Positions 1 to 62,900 are shown, counted from the whole stretch's first letter. The stretch: DNA of 63,523 bases, filler included, from Rhabdomonas costata (GCA_019059605.1; 54 parts of 54 records of this genome joined end to end with filler, not necessarily neighbours in it); one strand, 5' to 3'. Notes: generated by a model not told the origin, from the sequence alone. Numbers and translations: made by a program.

Positions 1-58
1 TTTGTTTGTTTATTTATGTGTAAATTAGCTAATTATACACAAGATATTCATATTTTTT

Positions 59-462
59 TTATGAGAACCAAATAATAAAAAAATATGAATATCTTGTGTA
101 TAATTAGCTAATTTACACATAAATAAACAAACATGTACAAATAAAGAAACATTAATTGTTTGTGATTTGGAAGTTAAAAAGTGTAAATGTATATTTTCAT
201 AATCAAATGTAAAATAAATGAAATGACATGAACTTATATATTTTTCGATACATGGAGAAATAAAATTTGAAATTAATAATTTTTTAATTTTTAATTTATT
301 TTTTACGAATTCATATAATTGTATATTTTTAAAATTATTATTTTCTAAAAAAAGAAGTAATTTTTCTAAATTTTCAACTGTACTATTTTCATATTTATAT
401 TTATGTAATGTATTATTTATTATATTACATAATTCATCATCATTATATATTTTATAATACAT
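59..462 (-). CDS. AT-rich hypothetical protein, 3'-truncated; resembles the N-terminal half of an NCLDV HEXXH-metallopeptidase-like family
   Basis: Intronless ORF, N/K/I-rich with A/T-ending codons; NFISPCIEKYI...IHIFLLFGSHKK recalled as similar to giant-virus proteins. The apparent C-terminus (25-58) is a fold-back artefact because 3-58 is the reverse complement of 77-133. Confidence 0.5.
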
Positions 463-671
463 AGTTTTACAATTGTAATATTTTTGATATGTATCTGAAA
501 TATATTTTAAAATATGCGATAAGCATATTTTTTTATTATGTGCTAAGCATATTTTTTTTTATTTTTGGCGATGTATCTAAAATATTAAAATATAATTGTG
601 AAATTTTAGATAATTTTTGTGTATCCATATATATAATCATTTAAAAAAACAAATAAATTATATTATTATTA

Positions 672-1078
672 ATGAACAAAAACAAATTACTTGATCATAT
701 CTCGAAAAAACCAAATTTAACACAATTGAATCAAAATTATAACAAAGAATTAGAAACATTATGGGAACAAAGAACTAATGTACCATATAAAAATATAATA
801 AAAAATGAAGATTATAAAAAGACAATTACTTCACCAAATGATTTAATTGTTCATAAAGTAACAGAACAAGATAAAAAAGATACAGATACATGTTTTGATA
901 AATTAAAATCAATAATTACAAATCAAAATAAGGAAATAAATGTAATATATTCAGATTCACGAATAAATGAACATAAAAAACAATTTGAATATAATCACAA
1001 ATTTAAATTTAAATTAAGTACAAAAGACAATTCAATTGATTTAAAAGAACAAGGAGATGAATATTATAAAAAACCACA
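672..1078 (+). CDS. Conserved hypothetical protein of Mimiviridae/Klosneuvirinae type, 3'-truncated at the contig end
   Basis: Open frame to the contig end in <20% GC DNA; motif W-x2-RTNxPYKNII-x-NEDY...DLIVHKVT-x2-DK...HKKxFEYNH recalled from Imitervirales hypothetical proteins. Confidence 0.65.
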
Positions 1079-3087: not shown

Positions 3088-3551
3088 GTTGCAACCTTCT
3101 TTTCCTGTGGTTGTTGCTCTTTCGTCTCACCCGAAACAAAGAGCACAAGGGGACGTCTTCAGTAGAAACAAAGTCTGCACATGACATTGTAGCAAAGCAT
3201 CACGTGCGGCCGGTTTCTGTCCCCGGTGCACAAGAATGGTACAAAACACAGGTCACGCCTACCCCGCCCAACGGACTTTCATGCTACTGAATGTTTTCTT
3301 TTCAAAGGGGGAAATTGTTTTGTAAAAAAAAAACTCTGTAAGAAAAGGAATTCCTGCTCAGTGTAGCTTCATTGGCATTTACCCCCCACCCGCCACAAAA
3401 ACCCATAATGTTCCTCCGTGAAGATAACCACAACCNNNNNNNNNNNNNNNNNNNNNNNNNNNNNNNNNNNNNNNNNNNNTTAATTAATTAANNNNNNNNN
3501 NNNNNNNNNNNNNNNNNNNNNNNNNNNNNNNNNNNGTGGTGTGTGGCTGCA

Positions 3552-3838
3552 GCCTCCCTGGTGTTGGCATGGACGCGCCCCCGCCTCTCGCGCAAGTGCT
3601 GCCGAGTGTCGCGGCGAATTCCGCGGCGCCATTCTGGAGGGCCTCTTTGAAAGAGGTGGTGCATGCCCTGGGGGGATGTGGGGACGACCTTCCCGTGGCT
3701 GCCCTGCCCGCAGCCGTGCTGGGGTTCCTGGTGCTGGGGTCTCTTCAGGATGCGGTGCAGTCACAAACCGTGAGGATTGCCGTGGAGCAGGACCGCACCA
3801 CCGGGGGATATGCGGTGGTGGTTCGGTCGTGGCTGTGA
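3552..3838 (+). CDS. Probable terminal exon of a hypothetical protein
   Basis: GC3-rich open frame after tgcag, ending ...TTGGYAVVVRSWL-TGA. Confidence 0.45.
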
Positions 3839-6800
3839 CCGCGGTGCTCATGTGCGCCCAAAGGGCAGTGAGGCAGTATAATGACCTTGTCGGGTTGGGT
3901 TCACCCTTTTGGTTGACGCCTTGCAAAGGGGCACGAGCTGGCACATTGTGCGGTTGCCTCCACGTTGTTCTCCACGAGTGCTTTAATGAGGAGGGCGGCA
4001 AACCGTGAGAAGCCACGACCGGTTGAGAACGCATTTACCGGATTCTAGCAGACTCTCTCTTGCTGCTGTTTTGGGAGCAACTGAACAAACTGACAATACA
4101 ATATTAAGTTAAAACAAACAACGGGAAAGCGAATCAGAACTGGTTGAGCTGTTTCAAGACAACGGAGTTGAGGTAAATGAAGGTACCAGCCCCTTCCGTT
4201 CTCACATTTAACATAGCCATCATTGTAATGCGGCTGTTTCCGGGCTCCAAACACCCAATGAATTACCATCCGACTCGCTCGTCCACAGACACCACAGGGC
4301 ATCCCTGAAACCGTGTGGGGTTTTGCTTCTGTCTGTTGCACCAGAGGTTACTGACAATCTGTGTAAACCCGTACGGAGTGGAGGCAAACTATGAAAGCAC
4401 CATCGCTCGTAGTTAGTTCATTTTCCAATTGTGTATGGAAGGAATTCCTGACCTAGGCAGTGACCTTGGTTTTGGGGATTATATGAGTTCCGAGTTCAGG
4501 AGTTCCCCGTTTCCGCTTTTGTACTTCCACTGACTCCGGTGACAAGGAATGGGATAGTACAAAAGCGGAAACGGGGAACTCCTGAACTCGGAACTCATAT
4601 AATCCCCAACACCNNNNNNNNNNNNNNNNNNNNNNNNNNNNNNNNNNNNNNNNNNNNTTAATTAATTAANNNNNNNNNNNNNNNNNNNNNNNNNNNNNNN
4701 NNNNNNNNNNNNNGGGGTTGAAAATGACAATGATGAGAAGCAACGGTCTAAGAGTAGTGAGTGGGATTGTGTTTTTGCATTTGGAGGGTGGTTGTGGCCT
4801 TCACCCACCACTGCAGACCACAACCACCCTCCAAATGCAAAAACACAATCCCACTCACTACTCTTAGACCGTTGCTTCTCATCATTGTCATTTTCAGCCC
4901 CACGACGAGCTCTTTCCATCCTGAACTTTCCATCCTGTCTGTTCCTCTGATCTGATCTGATCAAACACACATCACAACAAGCTATGCACGCAAGCACACC
5001 CACGCAGGAGGTGCACTTGGGTCTTGAGGGAGTGTATTCAAGCTGCCCCTCGCGCTTCCCTTCTTGGCCACTGCTGTTTCTTGAGAGGAGTAATCATTTC
5101 TTCCTTTTTCAGTGTCTTCATTGCAGTAGTATCGTTTGTACAAATCGTGCACAAACCGCTTCGATCATGTCAAACAATCTTAGAAGAGGGTTATGGGAAT
5201 ATTTATATTTATTTGACGAACCCAACAGATTAGAATAAAACTGCTGCTACGAACCTGACAAAACTCTAATTGCAATGGACGATAGTTCTGAAACTCAGTG
5301 CTCGCCTTCCCCCCTTCATCAATGGTGGGGCCAAAAAGGCTCCCGATGGGACTGCCATCAGGATTACAGATATAACGTTCACATTATGGGGGCAACGATG
5401 CCGAAGTTTAAGAGCAAACTCAGTGAAAAACGAGGAGGAACGATGACCTACGGGTCATGTCAGTGAAAGTGGGGTATTTTCGAACCTCTTCAGAACAGCC
5501 AATCACAACAACGGAGAATTGGGAGCAGGCGAGGTTGTGCACGCGAGAGCACGTTTTAGTGTCATTTTTTCCACAGTGATGGTCCCTTTATAAATCGAGT
5601 TGTACCATTCTATAATCGTCTCATTTCCAAAGAGCATTGAAATATCGTATTACCCCGACTCGAGCGACATAACGACACAACGCCGCAGCAGCCAAAACCT
5701 TCAGGCGGGAACCACAGCCTCGGAGCCCGCAGCAGGGGCCGGTGCGGACCCCAAACACAACACCACTACCGCCGCCACTTGCACCAAAAACNNNNNNNNN
5801 NNNNNNNNNNNNNNNNNNNNNNNNNNNNNNNNNNNTTAATTAATTAANNNNNNNNNNNNNNNNNNNNNNNNNNNNNNNNNNNNNNNNNNNNACAATATCG
5901 CGCTGTTCCACTCCACAGTATATCTTGTTTCACTCCATTTATTGCCCGTTTCCTTAATGGAAAGTCTTGGCTCCATATTGACCCTTTCGTTAGCTCTCTC
6001 TCTCTATCTCTCCAATTTATGACCTCTTTATCACCTCTGAACATACGCGACGTTGGTCTCCTCGTCCACTTTTGACTGTACTTCACAAGCTGAAACAAAA
6101 GGACAACAGTAATCAACAATGAACTACCAAAACAGTCCACTGTATCCAATCACGTATATCCAATGCTCTACTTCGTAATGAAACTCCATATATCAAGTCT
6201 TTCTCAATGCTCATATACCTTCCACTTCTTTTCCTACGACTTAATAAAACAGTGTAGCCCACTTGTGTCTGTGTCTCACCTTCCCAGATTTATATAGATT
6301 TATATAGCCTTCTTTGCCACTCCACACTTCTAACCGTGATATCCTTTAGACACGGGTATCACGCGCTGCGGTCTGTCGCCGCCGCTTGGGTTATATCTTT
6401 GATTTCTGGATTGGGTGTGTGTGGAGTCTGGCTCTTTGGATCCGCGCTGGCTTCCTCTAGCTGGCGGTGGGGGCTCTTTAGCCGAAGTAGGGCCGATGCC
6501 CATGGCAAAACGGGTGGTTTATCTGGACTTCTTTTGCTGTGACTTCGAGGGTTCCGCTGGGATGTGGGGTCCTGGAGGTCTTTCATCTACCAAGCCGTCC
6601 GCTTACGCCTTTACCACCCAAAAACAATGCAAGCAAGAAGGAACGGCACCAAAGCACAGCACAGGGGAAAGTGAAAAGATTCAGCTCTGAACCTTTTTAG
6701 ACATGACTCGCCTCTACACCGCTTTAGTTTGGCTCCACTGAGCTTTTTATATGCGACCTGTAAAATAGGTAAACAGCTTTCAATTCACAACCCAAAGACA

Positions 6801-9220: not shown

Positions 9221-12200
9221 GTCAGCAGTCCAGACTTCCAAGGCATGCCGTGTGGCTGTTTTCCAGGTCCATCCATCATTTGGCTCTTCCACTTCGCGCT
9301 GTACTGCTTTTTATTGCCCCACACCCNNNNNNNNNNNNNNNNNNNNNNNNNNNNNNNNNNNNNNNNNNNNTTAATTAATTAANNNNNNNNNNNNNNNNNN
9401 NNNNNNNNNNNNNNNNNNNNNNNNNNGTTTTGGGTTTACCGATAGTTTTGTTCCAATCACTAAACTATCGGTAAACCCAATTCAAAATTCAAAATTGAAA
9501 GCAGAGTGAAAACCACAGGTTGCCTTTGGAAAAGCTCGAACACAACCCAACAACATTAAAAAAAGAGAAAAGTTGAGTGAGGTGCACATGACACGGGAGG
9601 TAGGGCAAACAGACTCTTCGCCGGGCGGTGTTTTTTCTACGGAAAAAATTGCCGCAAAGCTTGTGCATTATCAGGGAAAGAACTGAACAGGCACGGCGCC
9701 CTCTTAGCAAAGCGTGCACATTTCCCGGTGAAGCTAAAGGATTGAACAAACAAGGGCAATTCTTTTTGCTCTTTGACATAGGAAGAGAGAGAGACCGACC
9801 CCACCTTTGGAAAAATTACTCCTGTTAATTTGCTACTTTTTCGCGTTCTCTCAATTCGATTTGGGGCTTTCTTCATTTTTCGGTTCACAGCTTCCTGGGA
9901 CAAAAACCTTCGTTTTCCAGACGGCCGGACCCTGAATATTTTCGACAATTTTCCGCACGGTCTTTTGTCCATTTTTTGCGACTATGCAAAACTCTGAAAA
10001 TTCTCATGAACCAAACATGTGATGACCCCGTGCATTTCTTGCCTCGAAAAAGTCATTTGTTCGATTGTTTTCTGCCTTTTTCATTTAGTCAAGATTTAGT
10101 GCGCACTTTTGGAAGTTGTGCCTTTGGAAGACTGCGTGACCCTCGAGCTCTGAGGCCTGGGGTCTCTGTACATGCCGCAAGCCTCCCGAAACGAAGTGTG
10201 CACTCCGATTTTACACGAAAAAAACCGAAAGAACTGTAAAACATGCCACCAGCAAACCAAAACAGGAACAATAAATTGCAGAGGAACGGGACAGGATTTT
10301 CTTAAAAAGAACCCACATTTCCACACTTCAAAGACTTTTATCAAGTCCGTCAGAGACGTTAACTTTTTCTGTTATGAAATAAATTGAAAAATTGAAATAA
10401 ATGAATTAAATTCGAAAATTGTGCACATTAAAAGTCCAGCTTTTTTGAAAAAGGTGTCTGCGTGCAATTTTTTTCTGCGGTCCTTTCGTCACCCACACCA
10501 ACCCNNNNNNNNNNNNNNNNNNNNNNNNNNNNNNNNNNNNNNNNNNNNTTAATTAATTAANNNNNNNNNNNNNNNNNNNNNNNNNNNNNNNNNNNNNNNN
10601 NNNNGTGTGTGGTGATCCCGTTGGGTTATGGACCTAGGTTGGGATTCCGGTGCAAGTCTGCTTAAGGTTTGCGCTGATTGCACATGGTCAGCTCCGCGGG
10701 TAGTTATGGTGATTGATCACATCGATGCGGCCGGATGGGGGCGTGTCATTGCAGTTGTGGCTTTACCAGACTCTAAGCTTCAATGACAGATATGCCCAAG
10801 TAAAGGCAGCTTGGTGAGTAGGTATGGTTCTTCTTAACGGCGTGGTTCTGCAGTGTCATGACCTGGGCTGGTCATACCTGGGGAAAGTATTGTTGGTATG
10901 CTTTGAGTAGGATGATTACAGCTCAATTTGCACACCCATAACATTTCCTGAGCTACTCGGCGATCCCCTGGAAATGGCCCTTTCCAACAGAACAACAGTT
11001 TGGTTGGTTGGGTTCCACAACGACGGATGACCCCTGGCCCAGGCCTTCAGGAGAGAGCCAAGTGTCTTAGGTCCATGTTTGTATGGTGAACCGCCCCCCT
11101 CATTTGGAATGAATTGTCGTTCGCCTTTCCTTCGTCTCTACTGTGCCCTTGTCAAAGTCATAAACGAACACCCACTCAAAAAGGGGGTTCCTGCCATGCC
11201 AGCTGAAGATTGGCCCCGCGGTGTGCACTGGCGTGCTCACGTTTGAGAGCATGCGGTCCTTTGCCCAAAGACTTGGCTGGGTACCCCCCAGCCAGTAAGC
11301 AACCCCTCCCCTCGTCCCACTGCAGGCCCCCGTCCCAACCTCCCATGACCCTCTGCTGGCCCGTCAGCCAGCGTAGGGTACGCCTATCCCGTCCAAGTGC
11401 GCCGGTAGGGGCCTCAACCAACCACTGGGGCCTTCCCCTGCCCTCTCCAATTTTTCCAAATACCCACCTTGCCTTGTCCCATTCCTGCCGCCGTCCCCCC
11501 AATCCCACGATGGCTTCCTCCTTTCCTGGTGAAGTGTGCAGCCTATATACCCTAGTGCGCTTCTTCGCGCCTGAGCTCAACTCCTCACGGGCTCTTTTTG
11601 CGTCCGTTTTATTCTGCGCCAGCGATGTAACTGTCTCCTCTGTTTTCCCTATCCCCTCGCCAGCTTAGTAGTTTCGTGCTGTNNNNNNNNNNNNNNNNNN
11701 NNNNNNNNNNNNNNNNNNNNNNNNNNTTAATTAATTAANNNNNNNNNNNNNNNNNNNNNNNNNNNNNNNNNNNNNNNNNNNNGTGGTGTTGTTGCACACT
11801 GTTCTCTTTGAGTAGCATGTGGCCTCCGGGGAGAATGTGTTTTCTTCTTGGGTACCTCCTGTGCTAACATTTTAGGAGGATCTGGTTCGCTTCCATTGCA
11901 GATAATGCTCCGTTTGGATGAACCTGGGAGGATCTTGGTCCGTCTCGTGGATGGTTTGGGAAGGAACGTGACCGACTTCTGAAGAATATTGTCGATTGCG
12001 GTTGTGGTCTTCATCGTCCCGTGCAAAATTCAATGCCTTTCTTGTAATTTCAGGTGTGCTGGTTGTTTTTGATGATGTTAGGCCCGGTCCCCCCCCCCCC
12101 CCCACGCTCTTTTTTTTCTGGTTTGCGCACCGTAAATGACTTCTGTGAGTCCTGGTTTCCCTCTTGTCTGTTTTTGTTTTTAGGAATCTGTTTGATTTTC

Positions 12201-24750: not shown

Positions 24751-25827
24751 TGTGTGTTGTGACTGTAGGAGTGACGCTGGCTGTGAAACGCATGGAATCG
24801 AGTGAGCTGGAGGAAGGCATGTTGGTGACCTGCAGGTCACCAGCAATATTACAGCCGCCTAAAAAAAAGGAGGTCAGGCCGGTGGGTAGGATCAAGCTAA
24901 GGGCCCCGGGAATGGTATTATAATAGAAGCTGAAGGTCCGGAGAGAGCTGGGCATGGAGCCGAGAGTTAGGCCCGAGCCAAAGGTACAGCTGTAGATCTG
25001 CAGGGTGGACAGCGAGCTGGGAAGGGTGCCAAGACTGAGGCCGGAACCAAAGGTACAGCTGTAAATCGACAGTGAGGTCAAAGTGCTGGGAAGATTCTGA
25101 ATCGTCAGGCCGCCCACAAAGGTAGCAGAGGAAATCGAGAGGTAGGTGGCGGAGGACAAGAACGAGAAGTCCAGCGTCCCCGTGCACTGGTGGCTGTACA
25201 GGAGCACAGTCGTCTGCGAGCTTGATACACCACGCGAGCTCGCCCACGCGGAAACGCTGCAGGTCGGGACGGCTGAAGGGCAGACCACAAACCAAGGCAG
25301 GCAGAATGACGTGGGACTGTCGAAGCAAAGTGGGCTGCATCACATTCCTCTAACCCTAAAAACAACAACCTCTAACACCACAACCGCTTCCATATGCTAT
25401 ATGCTATGGGTCAAGGGGCCCAATTTCGGAAGAAGAACCTGCCGTAGGGGAGGGGGGGCAAAGGGTGTATCCAACCCTCCCTGCCACAACACACCGCGTC
25501 TGAAGGGAGTGGCAAAGGAAACGGAAGCCGCATTTGATGTGTTTCCCGGTATAGTTCAGTACCGACATGGGAGGAAGAAAAACAAGACGGTTTCCTGGCA
25601 CCATCTGCTGCACTTCACTATGCACCAAATCCGGTCCAGCACAGCCTGCCAATAAGGCAAGTCAGAGTCAAAGTCTCCAGTCCCCGGAAAAAGTCACAAG
25701 AGCTTTCTTTTCTTGTCCATGACAAAGCAAAACCACAAAAGTGAACACCGGAGCAGCCCGAGAGGGTGAAGTTCCAGTATGGAGTGTCGCAGCTCACGCT
25801 CACAGCCCCCGGGTAACCAGAAGCGCA
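24751..25827 (-). CDS. Leucine-rich-repeat surface protein with an upstream Cys module; exons 25827-25749 and 25272-24751, both ends truncated
   Basis: About 23-aa repeats LPSxLxxLxIYSCTFGSGLxL; the upstream exon CASGYPGAVSVSC...FTLSGCS joins in phase 1. Confidence 0.85.
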
Positions 25828-29460: not shown

Positions 29461-30537
29461 GGTGTTTGTGACAGAAGCGTAGGCAGTGATGATTAGGGCG
29501 GACCCACTAATGGCGAAGCATGCGACTCCCACGCACGCTGGCAGGGCGTATGGAGAGCCGTGGAGCAGATAAAACACCCCTCCGCTCAGCAGCCCAAAGC
29601 ACAACATTGCACGAGATCCGTAACGGTCGTTCAGGGTGCCCATCACACTACCCCCAACAGCGTAGAACGCCGCTGAGAGGGCGTAGAGGGAGCCCACAAC
29701 GGCAGGGGAAAGGTCAAATCTCGCTTTGAAGTAAAGGGGCAGCCCTGCAGAGCGAAAAGTGAATCCCAGACCTGCAAAGAAGACCGCCAAAATAGGCAAG
29801 ACCACTTCCATTGGCTGAGCCCATGGTTGGCCACGTTCGCACTTTTCCGCGCTGCCCTGGAGATGCACGGCCTCAGAGACGCGCTTCGTGCTCTGAGCGG
29901 CTTTTGTTTGCGCACACGTTCGGTGGATCAGGTGCAGCGGAAGAATGGCCAAGCCCACAGCACCTCCTGCCACTGCAAAGGGAAGCAAAAAGCCCCCCCA
30001 TTTGTACAGCAGGCCGCCCAAGGAAGCCCCAATGGCAAAGCCAACACCAACAAAGGTCTCAAAGCGACCCACCTGGGTCCCTGTGCTGTCCGAAAACTCT
30101 TCCGCCAGGCATACGATGCTGGCGGAAGAGATCAGGCAACGCCCACACGACTGCAGGGCCCGAGTAGCGACGAAAAGATAGAAGCTCTTCGACCCCACAG
30201 CAACGAACGGAACCACTCCAAATAGCAATGTGCCAAGGCACAGGAACGTAAGCCCGGCAGACAATACCGGCCGGTACCCGTACAGGGAGCACATCCAGCC
30301 AAAGGGGGTGGAACTGCAAGCACAGACCACGGAGTACGTGGAGAAAATTGCTCCAACAGCAGGCAACGAAATGCCTAAAGCCTGTGCTTCAGGGGGAAGG
30401 ATTGCCGATGCGGTACCCAGGCAGAGGTGGCACACCGTGGCCTGAGCAAAGCATGCGCAAAGTATCACGCGCTGTCGCCAGCTCTGGCGAGCGCAGTCGT
30501 CAGCCAGCGGCTCGTCCCCGACAATGTACCCAACCAC
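29461..30537 (-). CDS. MFS transporter, SLC18B1/vesicular amine transporter-like; intronless over the contig, 3'-truncated
   Basis: About 360-aa open frame with about 11 hydrophobic helices; MFS motif A (GWMCSLYGYR, GTLNDRYGSR), RALQSCG, and GFAIGASLGGLLYKWGGFLLPF. Confidence 0.92.
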
Positions 30538-31156
30538 CNNNNNNNNNNNNNNNNNNNNNNNNNNNNNNNNNNNNNNNNNNNNTTAATTAATTAANNNNNN
30601 NNNNNNNNNNNNNNNNNNNNNNNNNNNNNNNNNNNNNNGTGGGTTTTTCTGAAACATGCGGATTTTGGAATCGGACAGATTGATTATTCATAACGGCGTG
30701 GTATCTGGTCAGCAGGCCGGAAGAAGTGAGTTTTTTTTGGCATGTTCTCAAGGTATTGTCTTGTCAAGCTCCCCATTTTTGTTGGACATCACGCGTCACA
30801 TTTCAGTTGATTAGTTCACGAATTACAAAAGTTCATGGCGATATATGGAACCGAATAGCCTCTCCCTCTGATTCTTGTCCACTCAATGCACTAAACGTAG
30901 AGGTGTCCGATCCGATCAGGAAAGAAGAACAACGGCATCTCTTGATGCATCCTGATCACATCCAGAGGACTGCAAGTACACTCGTACTGAGGATACCCTG
31001 GAACCAACTTGCAACCATCGGCAACTGAAGCACTGAACTCCGTTTGGTTTTGGAGCACATGGGACACTACGTTCAATGGGAAGCAAATACATCCACACTC
31101 AGAGGGAAACAAGTCATACAACACCCACCCACCCAAACACATACACACACACACAC

Positions 31157-40771: not shown

Positions 40772-41283
40772 GTTCTCGCTCCCTCCCCCTCCCGTCCGGT
40801 ATGCCCTTCTTATGAGTAGGTTTCTAGGCTGTTTGCTGGCCCAGCTGCAGGAGTGCGGTAGATCACGAATATGAGACTGAATTTGCACAGGAACACTGTT
40901 CGGCACTTGGTCCACGTGCAAAAAGCAACCAGCAAACAACACGTATGGAACAAGAAAGAGATGAGAAGCCGGAAGATACGCCAACGGGTACAGAGCTCAA
41001 ACGGAGGGAAATCACACTCCTGGAAGGTGTACGGGTGAGGTGTAACTGGGAGGGGAACTGCAGCCAGAACTGGTGTGTGTGCGGGATGCTGGATGAAAGC
41101 TTCAGTGGGGTGCGACGTCTTGTGGCGGTGACGCGGGCNNNNNNNNNNNNNNNNNNNNNNNNNNNNNNNNNNNNNNNNNNNNTTAATTAATTAANNNNNN
41201 NNNNNNNNNNNNNNNNNNNNNNNNNNNNNNNNNNNNNNTTGTGTGCACTAGATTGCTCACAATCCGACTTTTGAGTTCGCCAA

Positions 41284-41668
41284 ATATCGCGGTGGACACT
41301 TTTATTTGGCGAACTCAAAAGTCGGATTGTGAGCAATCTAGTGCACACCAAACACCAGTTTCTCCCCTGCACAACTCCTGAAAACCCAAAGTCAGACCAA
41401 AAAATGTTAAAACTTGGCTTGAAAAGAGACTCAAATCAAGATAAGGGCGAAGTTCAGCTGCTTTGGGATACCAACGAGCTCGGTTGTCAATGTTATTGGT
41501 TTTCTGCTTTTCACAACAAAGAGAGGTCACCGCCTTTTTTATAGCTCAGTGTAGATTTTTCTCCCCCGAAAAACCTCTGGTAAGTCCGAATGTGTCTCAT
41601 TTTTTGGACAAAGGCACACCAAACGAGAGCTTCATAAGTTCGCCAAACAAAAGTGTCCACCGCGATAT
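41284..41668. mobile_element. Candidate MITE (385 bp) with 32-bp terminal inverted repeats, lying in intronic sequence
   Basis: 41284-41315 ATATCGCGGTGGACACTTTTATTTGGCGAACT and 41637-41668 are reverse complements at 31/32; non-coding interior; TATA at the right edge. Confidence 0.65.
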
Positions 41669-41844
41669 ATTACCTTGAGAAGCAATTAATACGTGGTTTG
41701 GGACGCCCTTTGGCTCTGACAAATTTATGCACTCTGCTGAACACAACAACAGTGCACACACACACAAAGGGTAAACACTGGTACGGATACTGTCAGGCAC
41801 CGAAATTTACACACCCACAAACACCGGCAAAAGTTCATGCTGAC

Positions 41845-42021
41845 GAGCTCAGTGTAGTGCACCACGGCGTACACTCCTGTGGAAGCTGTGGGAAAAGCCA
41901 CAGCGTCTGGCCCATACACCACCGCGCTCAGGGTGCAGTTGGAGCAGCTAGGGGCTTGGGTGCGGTTGGCGCCGTCTACCAGGGTCACCAGACGGCTCTC
42001 AATGAGCACCATTGGAGTCGG
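41845..42021 (-). CDS. Exon of a probable extracellular protein
   Basis: 177-nt phase 0-0 exon with N-glycosylation sequons (NRT, NCT). Confidence 0.55.
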
Positions 42022-42490
42022 CTGGAGGAGCAAAACCAAAGGACGGGTGTGAGGGGGGAGGGGACGACACACCCTCATCAAACTAGTACCCACTGGACAG
42101 AACTTAACGGCCGAAAACAACATGAATATATGTGAATAGAGGGGTGGTTGCAGCCCTTCGCACCCCCCCCCATTCAACAACACACTCCGCTGCATTTCGA
42201 TAGTCAAAAACATACAGGTTTTGCTCAGCAAAAACGGAGTGTGCATTAATAGCGGGAGTGTGTGTGCGTTTGTGGACTTTTCCCTGTTCCTTCGTGAAGC
42301 CCCAGCAGACCTGACCNNNNNNNNNNNNNNNNNNNNNNNNNNNNNNNNNNNNNNNNNNNNTTAATTAATTAANNNNNNNNNNNNNNNNNNNNNNNNNNNN
42401 NNNNNNNNNNNNNNNNGTGTGTGTGTGTGTGTGTGTTTGTGTGTGTTTGCATTCTGCTTTGTGCACTTCTGAAACTTGCCCCCCCCGCAG

Positions 42491-45362: not shown

Positions 45363-45565
45363 GTACGTGCTTCGCTCAAACCCATCCGCACATTTGCATG
45401 CTAATTTAAATCTTCAATGCACAGCACAATGCACAGCACAATGCACAGCAAAGAAACAGCAGTGCAGAATGGAAACTAACAGTGAAACGAAATCGCAGGA
45501 CAAAATCACGAAAACCACACCACCATTATGTTCCAGCAAGACTCAGGCAACACTAGGAGCTCTAA

Positions 45566-45682
45566 TCACCATCATCATCGTCGTCATCACTACCGTCATC
45601 ACCATCATCATCATCATCGTGGTCATCATCATCGTCGTCATCATCATCATCGTCCTCATCCTCATCGTCTTTCTCATCCTCA

Positions 45683-45723
<41 letters not shown>

Positions 45724-45850
45724 CGTCATTGCCATCACCGTCATCATCGTCATCCTCCTCCTCCTCATCCTCGTCATCATCATCGTGATCGTCGTTACCC
45801 ACCACTACCACCACCTCCTCCTCATCCTCGTCGTCGTCGTCGTCATCATC
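45566..45850. repeat. Degenerate (CAT/CGT/CCT)n trinucleotide repeat tract
   Basis: Directly visible; runs into the contig end. Confidence 0.95.
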
Positions 45851-46358
45851 NNNNNNNNNNNNNNNNNNNNNNNNNNNNNNNNNNNNNNNNNNNNTTAATT
45901 AATTAANNNNNNNNNNNNNNNNNNNNNNNNNNNNNNNNNNNNNNNNNNNNGGTGTTTGGGTGCACAGTTTCTTAATGTCATCCTTTTGGTGCAGTACATG
46001 AGAAAGCTCGAAACTGATCAAAATGGCAAGAAATAGAATAGCCCAAAAAAAACGGGCTCATTCGACCCCCCTTTCCCGGAGCAGGTTCCCCTTCCCCCCA
46101 AGTATGGGAAGGTGCATCCAAAATCACTCAACAAAGACCTTTTGGGGAAGAGGGGATAGATCGATAATGGATTAAGGCACAGCTTTGTACTCCCCCAGAG
46201 ATTTAGATGATGTTGACGCTTTGTAACACACAGGGTTGCACAGGGTTAGGTCCGCATACAAGCTCCCCAGGGGGAGCATGTATGTACCCCCGCAATTTAC
46301 ACGGGCTAGGGAGCCATGCACGGGGGGGATACCATTTCCGTGCGTCCGCTCTCTCCGT

Positions 46359-46629
46359 ATGACTTCTGCAACTAAGGTGTTGCTGCCGCGGCTCTACGCT
46401 GGCGCAATCTTTCTGCTGCTGGGCGCCCTTGTAGTCGCTCTGGACAAGGGCTCTTATCTTGTGGCCTTCTCGTGCGCCCTGATACTCGCGGGGCTGGGCG
46501 CCCTGCTGCCACGGCTGCTGTCGAATCACTTCATCGCCCGACAGCCTCCTGCTCCTCGCAGTGAAGGCTGGCGTTCTTCCCCGAGGAGTTCCCCGAGAAG
46601 CACACTCATCTCAACCAAGCTGAGCTGAG
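46359..46629 (+). CDS. Probable first exon of a membrane protein (two TM segments), possibly frameshifted
   Basis: ATG-initiated GC3-rich hydrophobic frame with a strong |gtgagt donor at 46630. Confidence 0.4.
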
Positions 46630-48010
46630 GTGAGTGTGCTTCCACTGCGGTGGAGTTAGCGATTGACCCCGCTGATCCCGCTGGACCGAGGTTGATGGGG
46701 TTTGCCACACATCCCTCCTTTCTAGGGGTTGCACAAGCAGTGCTGCTTCCGAAGCTACCGATGACCTTATGTGCACCTTTTCGGTGCAAAGGGACTTTTC
46801 TGTGAAGGACTGTCCACGTTGTGCGGGTGGCTTTTCTTCACCTGAATGGCTTCTTGAATTCCGATTAACAGAGTTTTCTCTCACTGAAAATCACGGTGGA
46901 AAAACAGCATGCAAATTTACGGAAAATGTTCACAGTCGCCAAGGAAATACTTGTGTTTCGGAGTTGCACGTGCATTGTGCAGTGCCGACGCTGTGCTGTG
47001 GTTACTTGACATTTTCCGTAAATTTGCANNNNNNNNNNNNNNNNNNNNNNNNNNNNNNNNNNNNNNNNNNNNTTAATTAATTAANNNNNNNNNNNNNNNN
47101 NNNNNNNNNNNNNNNNNNNNNNNNNNNNGTGTGGGGTGGGAAAGAACCTGAACCGAAGGGGAATGAACGAGGGTGATGGAGAACTCATGGGACAAAGACG
47201 GAGGGAGAGAGGCACTGAAACCGCCGAACCTCCTGGATTGACAGTAACATAAAAACAGAGAGGGTTCTCACACCAGTCGATTCAGCGCGGGATTCGGAGG
47301 CCCGTTCCCAACGGTCATCGGGCGAACTGCCTGAATCACGGCAAATGGCTGGCGTACATACGAAGGGCTGACGGGCTCCAAGTCCAATGCCTTGGACTGA
47401 CCCACAAGCTGCGGGTGAGAGCAGACCATACTGCACCCCACCGTGCAAACTACAGCCACGCCAATCGTCCGCATCTGCCCTTTCTGTGAATTATCGTTTC
47501 ATCACTTTTGGCACTGTCCATTGGTGACAAGCTGAGCAATTGAGCTTTTACTCCACATCTTGTGTGGCTTGCAGAAACCTCAAGCACCCAGGCCTTGAAG
47601 TTCTCCTGTTATTGATCAGCAGTTCATTTTTTGCCTGGAGACAGGGTGGAGGGGTTTGCAGGCTCGTTTGTTGAAGCGGCCGTCACCCAGCCGAAGCTGT
47701 CCTTACATCCTATTAGGTTGATCTGGGACCATGGGGGAATCTTTGGATGGGATTCTCACCCGTAAAACTTAAACCTTCAACACGAACACCAGAGGACAAA
47801 ATAAATGCCAACAACTTCGAACACTCAATTGTTCACTGTGCAATGTTCACCGCGCAAAAGAAAACAGTGGGGCGCAAGAACAATGCCAACAACTGGTACA
47901 AATTGAACCACGAAAACCAATTATCAAAATGACACTGAGCACCAGCGCGGTGCCACTTGTGATGAGATGAATTTTAAAAGTTTCTTTCGCTGGGTGTCGT
48001 CGTGCGGAAC

Positions 48011-53022: not shown

Positions 53023-53379
53023 TGGTGGGGGACTCTTGGTGTTCTTTTGCTGGGTGGGGGATCCACGAACGCCAGCTACAACTTCAATGACGGCTGGGCG
53101 AGCAGCAATGGCTCCACATGGACTCAGATCAACAACGGAGCCAGCAGCTACACCGCAGTTGCTGGCCCAGGCTGTGGTCTGTTCTTAGGCAAAGTCTGGG
53201 TTGTGGGGGGCGTGGTGTCCGGGGCGGACGTCAACACCGTCTGGAGCAGCACAACAGGTTCCTCTGGAAGCTGGGCGAAGACCACGACCTCCTCTCCGAT
53301 CTTCGGTGCCCGATCCTGCTTCGGCTTCGCCATCCTCAACAACAAGATGTGGGTTGTGGGGGGCTCATCCCTGAATGAT
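53023..53379 (+). CDS. Kelch-like beta-propeller repeat protein exon
   Basis: Repeats NDGWASSNGSTW, KVWVVGG...NTVWSST...W and NNKMWVVGG...ND; donor |gtatgc. Confidence 0.82.
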
Positions 53380-55482
53380 GTATGCACCCGTCCGCCGCGC
53401 TTTTCACGGCATTGCCTGGTGCGAGATAAGCCTGGTAACACCCCGAAACTGAGATTTCAGTCACGTGACATTTCGAACATAAGTCTTTTTTTTTTACCAC
53501 TTGGAAGAACGAACAAAGGGCATGCCCGCACAAGCGGGGTGCCAACAGTTCACAGGTGTGGTCTATACTTCCGCCAGGGTATCGTTCCGCCAGGGGTGGT
53601 TCCCGTGGGGACCCGCACGGAGTGACGTTATTCGCACCCGTAAAAAAAAAAGAAAACAGCTTCCTTGATGGAGATCGGCAAATTTTCTCGAACATCCGGG
53701 CATCATCCCTAACATACACCCCTGAGCGGCCGCCCTTTCAAACAGGAGATCGAGATGATCGGGGCTAGCGGGATGCCCTGGGCCACAAAATACTACGCAG
53801 CAACGTAATACATCAGCCTTTCAATTTCTCTTTTCTTTTGTGCCAACGTTTGATTGCAAACATAACTATTTTCTACTATTATTTTCTATTATTATACTAA
53901 CTATCTATTGCGGTGGTTGCGGTTCCAGCCTTTCACTTTCCCTCCAGCAAAGGCCTCAAACCGCAAAAAGAAACGTCCTCAGTGAAACAACAAACCTGTA
54001 CACGAAGCAAAGTAGCGACATGCACGGGCGGTTTCTGTTTCTTGGTCCACGCGCAAAAAGAAATCTAATTACACATATACATGGCAGGTCAACCACAAAN
54101 NNNNNNNNNNNNNNNNNNNNNNNNNNNNNNNNNNNNNNNNNNNTTAATTAATTAANNNNNNNNNNNNNNNNNNNNNNNNNNNNNNNNNNNNNNNNNNNNG
54201 GGGTTGGGTCAAAAACATCCTGCTATTGTGGGAGCGTCGCTAAACCTCCTCTGCGTTCTGCTTGGGGCAAGAAGAGCGGATCACGTGTATGCGGTATAGC
54301 TACGTTTGAAACCGACAACTCCGGGGCACAAAGGTGAGTGCGAGGTTCGAAGCGACCCGCTGCATTCCCTGCAATGGAAACCACCAGTTGTACACGCAGC
54401 TGAAGACACCTCAATGAGTGCAGATAGGTAGGTAGGCAGGCAGGTAGGTAGGTAGCTTAACAGCTCCTGTGGCACTGCGCTGATTCGATCCACACACGCA
54501 TACAACGCACCCCTGGGGGTGTGGGGGGTGGGCACAAGGTCAGTCGTTGAAGCGAACCTGGGTCTCCCAAACCATCTTCCACTTCTGCGTGCTCCACCCC
54601 GCGACGGGCCGACCCTCGCAGGCGGACTGGAAGCCAGCCGAGCCTGGGGGGCTGCTCTGTTGAGCCCAACCAACCCAACACGTTCTCACGCGCAATCAGT
54701 GCTGAGGCAGCCATGAGAACGGCGGCCACAAAAACAAAAGTGTGCAGTTGGCAACACCACCACATCGTTTTTCTCGTAGAGGAGGTTACACGGATTCAGA
54801 GGTGCCATATGAAAAACAGCAAAGCCAATGGGAAGACGGAAATCCACACCCGCAGGCGAGGCAATACTGCCTAGATCAGAAAGGAAGGAAGATACAAAGA
54901 AGGGTCAGGGTTGAAATCCTGTCGGAGGGTTCGGTGAATAGGGAGGTGGGTTGGTGGGGTGCGACCTGGCCCGAGCTGCTGCTGCTGCTGCTGGCCGCCG
55001 CCGTTGCCACTGCCGCCCACTCTCCTCTCCCAACGGAAGCCCCGCAAGAAGAGGTCAGAAGTGGACACCACCACCATTCGCTCGGAAGACAGGCTGATCT
55101 GAGAAGCCCGTGAAAAGCCCGTCGGCGCAATTCCCTTTTCCTCTTTCCCTACCTTCTGGATAATGGATGGTGGATGACGAACGCCCTGAAGCGAAAACGC
55201 CGGGCGAACGTTCTCACTCAAACACGCCTCACACCCCAAGAACGCACGAGACAATCACAATGACCCGAAACAACANNNNNNNNNNNNNNNNNNNNNNNNN
55301 NNNNNNNNNNNNNNNNNNNTTAATTAATTAANNNNNNNNNNNNNNNNNNNNNNNNNNNNNNNNNNNNNNNNNNNNGGGGTTTGGTTTTTCCAGTCCCAGG
55401 TGGGCCCTGAATCAAAGAGACCCTGAAATTATGCTCTGAATGCTGAACAAACGAGCGCGGTGCACAACGGTCATAATTGCAG

Positions 55483-56453
55483 GGTCTCTTTGATTCAGGG
55501 CCCACCTGGGACTGGAAAAACCAAGACCGGTGTATCCCTTGCACATCTCTGGGCCACCAACATCACCAAGAAGAAGTGTGCATCTTTGTCCCTTGTTCTT
55601 TATGCTGGACCCAGCAACCAGTCAGTGATTGTAGCTGTGACGCTTCTGAGAAAATTTCCGGACGTGGGGACGGTGACAAAGCCCAGGACGATTCAGGTAA
55701 CTCACCTGACTCGTTGGGCCTGGACCGAAATGCAGAAGATGCCGGGCACTCTGCTGTATGAAGCCGAGCATCACCCCTTTTTTGAAGATAAGATCAAGCA
55801 AGGAAAAGCAGACGTTGCCCAGGCTCGTGAAAAACTCAAACAGGTCGAGCAGCGGTACTCCCAGAAAAGCAAGGAGTTCGGCAATGCAGAGAGGAATTTT
55901 CGTGCAAAGGTACGCACACTGAATAAAGTGCATAAAGAAGCTGAGGTTGGTGTTCTCAACCCCACCCATATTCTGTGCTGCACACTCTCAATGTACGCTG
56001 TGGTGCTGCACCGTTATGATAAGCTTGAGGTCACTGTGACGCAGGCGATTGTTGACGAAGCAGGACAGGCCACCGAACCGGAAACGTTCCTAGCACTAGC
56101 ATCCAGCACAGTGTCAGGTGTTCAAGCTGGGCCTGCCGAACGTGGGCTTGCTGAACGTGCCCTTTCCATCAACTACTCACTGCAGCAAATTTGCTTGATT
56201 GGGGATCACAAGCAGCTCCGTCCAGTTGTGGCAGGAAATCATTCATTCAGTTCCTTTTCGGACGCCCCACCTTGCCTGGTTCGAGACTGTGCTTCCGGTT
56301 TGGAAAGATCCTTGTTTGAACGCCTAGTTCGACCTTTTGATGGGACTGCCTCTGGTTCATATACGATGTTGCGCGAGCAGTATAGAATGCACCCTTCCAT
56401 TTGTGCATTCCCGTCAAAGGCTTTCTATCACAACCGCCTGATCCCCCACAAAC
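55483..56453 (+). CDS. Upf1-like superfamily 1B helicase (HELZ2-like), single long exon, truncated
   Basis: IQGPPGTGKT, LYAGPSNQSV, IVDEAGQATEPE, LIGDHKQLRPVV, GLERSLFERL, QYRMHPSICAFPSKAFY. Confidence 0.93.
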
Positions 56454-59900: not shown

Positions 59901-62900
59901 GGTGCAGAGGCGACCGCCTGCGGTTCTCCGTGCACTCCCTCGGCCGACACAGGGGTCACCTCAAACACAATGACGGCTCCCACAAAANNNNNNNNNNNNN
60001 NNNNNNNNNNNNNNNNNNNNNNNNNNNNNNNTTAATTAATTAANNNNNNNNNNNNNNNNNNNNNNNNNNNNNNNNNNNNNNNNNNNNGGTTGTGGTGAGC
60101 AAGTGTTGGGCCGGGGCACTCTGGTACAGGCGTGCCATCAAAAATGAGAAAAGAGGTATCCGCTGAGGCTCAGGAAAAACAGCAAAAAGCCCCCCCCCCA
60201 TACTTTCCTGGGTCACTGCTAAAATGCAGGGCTGCTTAATCGAAAAATTACTCAAGAACACCCACAAAAGTCCCAGTGCTCTGGAGGGTTGCCGTGGAGG
60301 GGTTTTCCTTGGTGGTGGTGGGAACAAGTGAGACGCCTGCCATGTTGTCCGAGCTTTGTCCGTCTGCAAAACCTCTGCCTCCCACCCCACAGATTAGCCG
60401 GACTCTGGGGAGTAGGCGCGCGTGGCCATTGAACGACTGCCGTTTGGAGGGGGGGGGACACTGTCAACATCCTAGCCATCCTCCCATCCAATGGGCCATC
60501 CAATGGACTTTCTCTTCGTTAATGGCACCCGCCGAAAACGAAATCATATAAAGTAGCAAGCCACTGCACACAAAAAAACGCCCCATGCACAACGTACATC
60601 ACTCCTTGCGTGCGGTTGACTCCAGTACCATGACCCGCGCTCAAAAGGAAATCCAGTCCTGTGGTGTACGTACCCCAGCAGCCCCGCTTTTGTCCAGACA
60701 TCGGCAGCAATGGTATTCTGTCCATATCTCTTGCCTTCTCTTGCGCTGATCAGATGAGAGATCTGATTATGGTCAGACGGGTGTATGTGTGCATGTGTGT
60801 AGTTCGGATGCACCAGAAGATGGGGAAAATGCGACGCGCCGGAGTTAATCTCCACGGTCTTCACGGGAACAGTCGGGAACTTCAGCGAGGAGCGAGAGGC
60901 GTAACATTCCACCTGAGCGCAGAATTCCATAAAACAGGTTAGAGATGAGGGAGAGAGTATAATCCAAAGGGATGTCTTTCTGCGAGAAGTGAAAGGTGGC
61001 ACTAAAAAATGAAGAGGAAGAGGGGGAAATTGGAACAAGAGATGAGCCGGGGAACGGCAGACCCAAAACTCGTGGCGGGGGGGAGTAAGAGTGATGGGTC
61101 TGCTGTTCCCCGGCATCTCTTGTTCCAATTTCCCCCTCTTCCTCTTCATTTTTTAGTACCACCAACANNNNNNNNNNNNNNNNNNNNNNNNNNNNNNNNN
61201 NNNNNNNNNNNTTAATTAATTAANNNNNNNNNNNNNNNNNNNNNNNNNNNNNNNNNNNNNNNNNNNNGGGGGTTTGGTGTGTGGGTGGCCCGCTGTTTTC
61301 CGCAAAACAGCGGGCCACACACGCACCACGGAAAACGCCGACACGTCGCACCGAGACCACGGGACCTCTGGTGTGCGGGGGCTTTCTCCAGCAGGGGTTA
61401 CCTTGCGAACTCAGCCTTTGGCGGTTTCCTTCGGGTGATGGAGAAAAAAATCCGGTAGGCGCGGGTGGGTAGAGGAGTGGTGACTGGGGCTTGTTTGTTG
61501 CTCAGCCCAGGGATATCGCCAATGGTGCTCCAGAGTTCCGGAGACGGCTTGAGAACTACGCAATACCTACTTCACAAGTGCGCCCACTAGGCACCTTTCG
61601 CCTACATTTTCATGGCTTGCTAACGTTGCCGTGCTTCAACCACAAAAACGTCTTCACAATTAACGCGCATTATCAAGGATCACTGCAAGCTCCATCTGGG
61701 CAAACGGTCTCCAAAGCAATGAATTTGGGTCTGAGCTGAGTTGTGTGGGCTTTATGTCAAGCAAAAGCCTCTTGTAATCACGTGACTACTTTTGGGTGTA
61801 AACATGTGTGCGAATCCCCCCCCCCCCACACGTCCAGAACAAAGCGAAAATACAAGCACGCAAAGCGGTGGGCAACGCAAGAAGCGTCAGAAACAAGGTG
61901 CAGCACAGGTGAATGATCATACCCATGATCGTCAAAAACGATTGAGAGCAATTCCAACAACAAACCCATTCTGCACGCAACAGCGGTGTCGGGATTGTAT
62001 GGAAACCAACGGTGGGCCTGAGGATTTTCGCAAAGCGTTTCTCTCATCCACACTTCACACGGCAGGCACAGCGATGTGCGGGAAAGGCACGAAAGCACGG
62101 CACACTTTCTTGAGAGACAGACCATCGGGGATTGCAACGAGCGTTGATGCAAGCGCAGCCTTCCACAGCGAGGGAATGTGTGTGCTTCTGGCATTGAAAG
62201 TGTGTACGTTGCTCGGCAATCTCCCCTGCCGGAAACACCCGCGGAACGGGCACAGAGGCAAAAAAAATAAATGGGGAGGGGAGAAATACAAAGCGAAGAA
62301 TAGAAAGGGCATCATTTTTTCTTCGCTTTGTATTTCTCCCCCCCCNNNNNNNNNNNNNNNNNNNNNNNNNNNNNNNNNNNNNNNNNNNNTTAATTAATTA
62401 ANNNNNNNNNNNNNNNNNNNNNNNNNNNNNNNNNNNNNNNNNNNNACCCTCCACGTACGGACCTTACACATAACACCTGCTCCCAATCCCTTCGCTTTAA
62501 GGTAGGACACATGCCATGTATGTCATAAACGTATGGTGTCTTTCCCCTATTAGGATGTGTGGATATTAGTGGTATACGCGTACTGTGCAATACCTTGATG
62601 TTGGTGGTTGCACCGTGGGTGGTTGTGGTATGGAGTCATGGCATCACGCTAATCCGTGTGTCAGTCCTTGCGCTCTATTGCATCCTTACAGAACCGCATC
62701 AATATCGAGGTAAAGCATCACGTCCCTACTCAGAAGGTGAACGGTAGGGTGAAGGGAGATGGCTCCGCAGGACGATGGCTGTAAGGGTGAATTGGGGTGT
62801 TGGGTCTTCACATCGCTCAATGCCTTCGCTCCTGTTCATATTCATGTATGACGTGACAATCGTCACACTCGAATCTCACTGCGTTTGTGTCTCATGTTCC

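Follow-up and report, generated by a model that had tools for sequence, protein, structure and literature searches.

The first contig of the stretch of DNA analysed here, called contig 1 below, is very probably a fragment of an uncultured and very AT-rich mimivirus-like genome (Imitervirales), amplified by the same degenerate-primer whole-genome amplification as the eukaryote-like DNA of about 50% GC in the other contigs. That there is giant-virus DNA in the sample is concluded from one of the two genes on this contig, ORF2, because this gene is otherwise found on giant-virus genomes: it has relatives on NCLDV genomes at eight distinct loci of IMG/VR, and look-alikes in giant viruses that bear a name. 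The viral assignment rests on that single gene, which has no known function; the two-gene contig carries no NCLDV hallmark gene.

The whole stretch of 63,523 bases, which we call the window, is no single locus: 54 contigs of 1,076-1,091 nt, with N/TTAATTAATTAA spacers between them, make up a slice of a fragmented assembly in which the contigs were sorted by length. Contig 1 occupies positions 1-1078. Its GC content is 17.3%, against 41.9-58.5% in the remaining 53 contigs, so that the low GC which a preliminary description of this DNA had reported, unlike that of the other 53 contigs, is confirmed. The features of contig 1, in window coordinates, are the following:

1..11, + strand: run of G and T only, 11 nt at the start of the contig, probably from the amplification primer
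3..59, + strand: arm of a fold-back artefact, an inverted copy of 77-133, 57 nt, 100% complementary
77..462, - strand: ORF1, trustworthy part, 128 aa, with its ATG at 462 and a frame longer than any in 2,000 shuffles
502..562, no strand: tandem repeat of 24 nt, about 2.1-2.3 copies, lying between the divergent genes or inside them
536..640, - strand: ORF of 34 aa from the six-frame translation, a possible displaced N-terminus of ORF1, meeting the open frame of ORF1 at the T9 run 552-560
672..1076, + strand: ORF2, 135 aa, with its ATG at 672 and its 3' end cut by the contig; its family is conserved in mimivirus-like giant viruses
1068..1078, + strand: run of C and A only, 11 nt at the end of the contig, probably primer-derived

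Stop codons are frequent in DNA as AT-rich as that of contig 1. Its longest stop-free frames have 177 and 140 codons; in 2,000 mononucleotide shuffles, the longest frame had 132 codons, and the maxima had a mean of 56. Since both exceed all 2,000 shuffles, ORF1 and ORF2 are taken to be real coding frames. The ORF listing and the six-frame translation place them on opposite strands, ORF1 on the minus and ORF2 on the plus strand, and the GC content at third codon positions is 0.055 in the former and 0.089 in the latter. Uninterrupted ORFs occupy at least 790 of the 1,002 trustworthy bases (77-1078), which makes the contig AT-rich, intronless and densely coding. The two genes had earlier been described as divergent and tightly packed: they are indeed real and divergent, but the packing is only moderate, with 209 nt from one ATG to the other.

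The protein encoded by ORF2 displays the motifs RTNxPYKNIIKN (here RTNVPYKNII), DLIVHKVT..DK, YS and FEYNHK, and has the R, Y, K and F that are invariant in its family, along with the near-invariant T, N, P, I, L, H, D, K, Y and S positions. A word-indexed search returned 17 candidates, of which three match ORF2 with E-values of 4.4e-23 to 4.1e-19 and 46-49% identity, all of them unnamed proteins; common to the four sequences are RTNxPYKNIIKN, DL[IV]VHKV, DK, YS and FEYNHK[YF]KF. Two of the three matching proteins also begin with MNKNKL as ORF2 does. This N-terminus is found in ORF2 and in the proteins P0001, P0002 and P0004, which supports a start at position 672. Compared by BLASTP, ORF2 and P0004 are 45% identical (E 2e-34). 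A profile built from four sequences, run against 1.84 billion protein representatives, reaches 368 clusters at E<=1e-3 and 281 at E<=1e-10. Most of these 368 family members are metagenome proteins without names, and the ten clusters that were looked up carry no informative name; a cellular or endogenised source is possible for some of them.

The closest relatives of ORF2 have 186-205 aa and consist of a core followed by a C-terminal helical region, while ORF2 ends at residue 135; its final three or four residues (KKP) are unreliable, because they lie inside the C/A primer-type run. An N-terminal extension of about 60-130 aa, present in most family members, is missing in ORF2 and in these closest relatives. 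When 73 family members are placed in a tree, ORF2 comes out as the sister of P0001/P0002/P0004 (SH-aLRT 93), within a supported clade of five, and its terminal branch has a length of 0.66 changes per column. The nearest relatives come no closer than 45-49% identity. One of them, P0004, is encoded on a 490-kb contig; scanning IMG/VR with it gave no relative closer than those already found, and of the 592 pattern matches that the ORF2 profile had in the JGI metagenomes, none was confirmed. Best matches to bacteria had been named beforehand as evidence against a viral origin: in 185,579 prokaryote species genomes, one for each species, there were 40 pattern matches and not one confirmed relative.

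A structural model of P0004 (197 aa), computed from an alignment of 79 sequences, is elongated, with long helices (pLDDT 77.6, pTM 0.33). It is this model, that of a relative of ORF2, which served as query in a Foldseek comparison (3Di+AA) with BFVD. The proteins that resemble it are all uncharacterised: A0A3G5AEX0 of Hyperionvirus (E 2.9e-8), A0A4D5XF18 of Mimivirus LCMiAC02 (E 2.9e-6), A0A1V0SGW9 of Hokovirus HKV1 (E 3.9e-6, 40% identity) and A0A3G4ZNT1 of Terrestrivirus (E 1.9e-4). Over the BFVD matches, the identities are 29-40% and the TM-scores 0.19-0.28, the latter being low because the model is elongated. The look-alikes that have a name are giant viruses without exception. A match to Bodo saltans virus was discarded, its E-value of 9.6 being meaningless.

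The likeness to a conserved hypothetical protein of Mimiviridae/Klosneuvirinae, which the preliminary description had recognized in the reading frame at 672-1078, is thus upheld both by the Foldseek matches to named viruses and by homologues in IMG/VR giant viruses, at 28-49% identity. Judged from its sequence, ORF2 would place contig 1 in the mimivirus-like group, where Klosneuvirinae and other subgroups fit alike.

In IMG/VR, the ORF2 profile identifies 10 loci with a relative, five of them bearing the name GVMAG, with GC contents of 18.6-27.7%. These reduce to eight distinct loci, since L003, L004 and L005 are one and the same sequence and L011 shares its contig with L001. The three identical records come from different datasets and agree at 100% over 10-20 kb: one viral genome has been recovered repeatedly. 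Five of the relative-bearing records were searched for hallmark genes. Capsid_NCLDV scores above its cut-off in two of them, with seven matches in the 168-kb contig of L005 and one in the 612-kb bin of L008, and the A32 ATPase is present in one, again the contig of L005. The seven capsid matches of that contig fall within about 28 kb and form a cluster of capsid-gene paralogues.

Around the homologues of ORF2, in seven loci, we find genes for Rpb1 with an intein, TFIIB, UDG, a SNF2/RING helicase, SWIB, DUF7197, DnaJ, HSP70 and Lon protease, a set that is typical of mimivirus-like viruses. Individual genes of these related contigs are worth recording: the largest subunit of RNA polymerase, containing an intein splicing domain, at L005:137-2935 (+ strand); a homologue of the archaeal-type MC1 chromosomal protein at L002:10242-10688 (- strand); and a protein with a CVNH (cyanovirin-N homology) domain at L010:1033-2028 (+ strand).

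The downstream side of these loci shows a recurrent order. In five of the six distinct loci with a visible downstream gene (L002, L005, L007, L008 and L009, the exception being L010), the homologue of ORF2 is directly followed, on the same strand, by a gene for a viral HSP70 of 900-1,000 aa. The possibility that the downstream gene of L010 is a divergent HSP70 was considered and rejected. On the upstream side, DnaJ is the direct neighbour in L001, L002 and L010, and the upstream position in the related loci is held by DnaJ, by DUF7197 or by an unrelated gene of about 430 aa; in contig 1, it is held by the unrelated orphan ORF1. Contig 1 ends within ORF2, so only the upstream side can be compared with the related loci, and there the neighbour differs from theirs. 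No conserved promoter motif is evident by eye in eight regions upstream of ORF2 homologues. The early-promoter octamer of the Mimivirus type is not universal in the mimivirus-like group; it has no match in 1-1078, and seven matches elsewhere in the window, where 3.8 are expected.

The position of the family directly upstream of a viral HSP70 leads us to conjecture, from gene order, that its members are partners of chaperones. The ORF2 family would then work with the virus's own HSP70/DnaJ set, for instance in the role of a co-chaperone, or during virion assembly as client or adaptor; the arrangement is a hint that it acts with the viral chaperone system. Its sequence resembles no described family: ORF2 has no credible match in Pfam or PHROG, no NCBIfam match and no usable hit in the ESM Atlas. 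When 79 family members were compared with Pfam, six families appeared, each matching one member (E 0.0016-0.0084) and none shared by two. In the PDB, the best match of the family has an E-value of 0.37 by sequence and of 0.88 by Foldseek. GrpE, BAG and other nucleotide-exchange factors were tried as candidates and set aside, no likeness of sequence or fold to them being found in Pfam, in the PDB or by Foldseek against the PDB.

The other gene of contig 1 is best read as a lineage-specific orphan; orphan genes are common in giant viruses. ORF1 found no homologue in protein searches at near and at longer length, in IMG/VR, in the JGI metagenomes or in the ESM Atlas, and no match in Pfam, PHROG or NCBIfam. 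Against the neighbour genes of the related viral loci, the best E-value among six sequences is 0.025, which is not significant, and a single-sequence structure model is too poor for use (pLDDT 50.1). With ORF1 as upstream neighbour, the local gene order of contig 1 is unlike that of all related loci.

Both ends of ORF1 call for some care. As listed, it has 145 aa and runs from the ATG at 462 to an apparent stop at 25. Positions 25-76 consist of the loop and the artefact arm of the fold-back, and consequently this stop cannot be relied upon, and ORF1 is probably truncated. On the other side, the frame remains open for 32 codons upstream of the ATG, ending at a stop that shares bases with the T9 homopolymer; here the 34-aa ORF that begins at 640 terminates in a different frame. 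A one-base error in this run (552-560) may be what splits ORF1; its real start would then be at 640, and only 31 nt, rather than 209 nt, would separate the divergent starts. The tandem repeat at 502-562 corresponds to a duplicated octapeptide in the extended frame of ORF1, and each of its copies contains a short palindrome.

We now turn to the ends of the contigs. The first and last ten or so nucleotides of most contigs in the window are made of G and T only and of C and A only, respectively; they are probably untrimmed primer sequence, and not genomic. Over the 54 contigs, the median run is 10 for G/T at the 5' end and 10 for C/A at the 3' end. Runs of at least 6 begin 40 contigs and terminate 42, and 32 contigs have both. 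Inside contig 1, runs of at least 11 are found at 0 of 860 positions for G/T and at 4 of 920 for C/A. In primers of the kind that would leave such ends, the degenerate part is made of G and T alone. The ends fit single-cell amplification by kits that use non-self-complementary primers with a degenerate 3' part, as described in PMC9102663.

The start of contig 1 folds back on its inverted copy around a loop of 17 nt (60-76). Seven other contigs have terminal inverted repeats, of 19-79 nt, and there is an additional hairpin at 60997-61160. Altogether, fold-backs are seen on eight contigs besides contig 1, namely 3536-4613, 4714-5791, 9427-10504, 41239-42316, 45951-47028, 55376-56453, 60088-61167 and 61268-62345, either as perfect arms of 19-79 nt or as hairpins matched by sub-threshold miRNA models. 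In contig 1 as well, hairpin-type miRNA models of Rfam match below threshold over 3-133 (E<=0.1). Terminal fold-backs of this sort are amplification chimeras, and can be mistaken for hairpin RNAs or for inverted terminal repeats. The claim that contig 1 has the same G/T start, C/A end and fold-back as the others holds: its end runs measure 11 nt, next to medians of 10, and fold-backs occur elsewhere too. Since these ends and the fold-back are common to other contigs, contig 1 went through the same amplification chemistry as they did.

Compared by tblastx, the other 53 contigs do not match the related viral loci, nor do they resemble contig 1. The search with Rfam and for tRNAs found no rRNA, tRNA or other Rfam family in the window at gathering score. 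Among 125 stop-free frames of at least 110 aa on these contigs, three have a Pfam match:

29461-30538, - strand: MFS transporter, 359 aa, in a frame that spans the whole contig
53023-53622, + strand: Kelch-repeat fragment
55427-56452, + strand: fragment of a SEN1/UPF1-like SF1 helicase

This content fits a gene-sparse eukaryote, of no particular lineage, and does not single out a flagellate or a euglenozoan. A telomere-type array was not found among the tandem repeats of the window. Two repeats on host-type contigs can be mentioned: an imperfect ATC/12-mer microsatellite of about 230 nt at 45565-45793, and a 69-nt tandem repeat in 2.2 copies at 24944-25093.

Contig 1 could in principle be a non-viral, AT-rich piece of cellular DNA, from an organelle, from a bacterial symbiont or prey, or from an AT-rich eukaryote. 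A GC content of 17% is also seen in some organelles, symbionts and protists, ORF1 is without relatives, and most of the ORF2 family consists of unnamed metagenome proteins. However, the whole set of prokaryote genomes is devoid of ORF2 relatives, neither NCBIfam nor Pfam recognizes ORF2, no tRNA or rRNA lies on the contig, NCLDV capsid genes accompany the relatives in two of five records and typical giant-virus neighbours do so in seven loci, and every named look-alike is a giant virus; we consider a cellular origin most improbable. If the DNA is viral, it might still belong to a giant-virus fragment endogenised in the nuclear genome of the host. The intact motifs of ORF2 are compatible with a recent insertion, and a contig this short could not be expected to include a junction. 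Yet its composition is extreme and unadjusted to that of the host (17.3% versus 42-58% GC, with a GC3 of 6-9%), which makes endogenisation unlikely; moreover, no host-like flank is present on either side (a fold-back artefact occupies the left end, a primer-type run the right), and contig 1 resembles no other contig. On balance, endogenisation appears very unlikely. The preferred reading is that of a mimivirus-like genome, whose DNA would have been non-integrated, in a particle or as a replicating genome; the sorted cell would have contained it or borne it on its surface, or it would have been in the droplet or well of that cell.

There are two ways in which such DNA could have reached the library. 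Either the amplified cell was productively infected by the virus of contig 1, and the two form a new virus-host pair, or the viral DNA has nothing to do with the biology of the cell: the cell may have swallowed a particle, had one adhering to its surface or been sorted along with one, or the source may be free DNA of the environment, or else carry-over or index cross-talk between wells of the same amplification batch. The primer-type ends and the fold-back that contig 1 shares with other contigs indicate amplification together or in the same batch, as an infection would have it, but these artefacts prove a shared chemistry, not a shared cell. Giant viruses of the mimivirus-like group do infect heterotrophic flagellates: Bodo saltans virus is a klosneuvirus of a kinetoplastid (PMC5871332), and gene transfer links klosneuviruses to Kinetoplastida (PMC7162819). 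Against an infection, only one contig of the 54 in the window is viral, the 53 others do not match the related viral loci, and a lone scrap of 1 kb would be no less expected if a particle had been ingested, attached or co-sorted. The same small size and isolation favour incidental viral DNA, against which nothing in the window counts, and mimivirus-like giant viruses are ubiquitous in environmental samples, according to PMC7162819. We lean, by a modest degree, towards viral DNA unrelated to the cell, and regard a productive infection as unlikely. The preliminary description had proposed an infecting, ingested or endogenised virus, and from it a virus-host pair; the giant-virus likeness and the shared library artefacts stand, but the pair is not supported, with a single viral contig in 54.

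As it is, the only lesson of the finding is one already known, that giant-virus DNA accompanies protist genomes amplified from single cells. Sequences of giant viruses are well documented in data obtained without cultivation, from single cells as from metagenomes (PMC7162819), and so is a pair of klosneuvirus and kinetoplastid (PMC5871332). Contigs like contig 1 should be flagged, and not counted as host sequence. If the full assembly held many contigs of this virus, in one cell only, an uncultured mimivirus-like lineage would be tied to a specific protist; to our knowledge, such links are still scarce. One can go further and imagine a new, extremely AT-rich mimivirus-like lineage that replicates in the amplified gene-sparse eukaryote of about 50% GC, a new host for giant viruses, and whose ORF2 family is a virus-specific partner of HSP70/DnaJ unlike known co-chaperones, but this combination is a doubtful conjecture, with little probability in our eyes. 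The ORF2 family itself, with its 368 representative clusters, its lack of annotation and its place beside a viral HSP70, is a reasonable target for work on the chaperones of giant viruses.

How does contig 1 compare with known systems? In its chemistry, it recalls amplification of the PicoPLEX/GenomePlex type: most contigs have G/T starts and C/A ends of about 10 nt, and several have perfect terminal inverted repeats. As a virus of a heterotrophic euglenozoan flagellate, Bodo saltans virus is a precedent for the mimivirus-like group. The proteins of Hokovirus, Hyperionvirus, Terrestrivirus and LCMiAC02 are related in a more direct manner, since they match the model of P0004, and ORF2 carries the invariant residues of the family of that protein. 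The nearest parallels are IMG/VR contigs and GVMAGs of the type of Schulz et al. 2020 (L001, L002, L005 and L007-L010), which bear the same family at 28-48% identity and are, like contig 1, AT-rich (18.6-27.7% GC) and dense in intronless genes. Contig 1, at 17.3% GC, is more AT-rich than all of these relatives. In them, the gene is set between DnaJ, DUF7197 or an unknown gene on one side and HSP70 on the other, whereas in contig 1 it has an orphan gene upstream.
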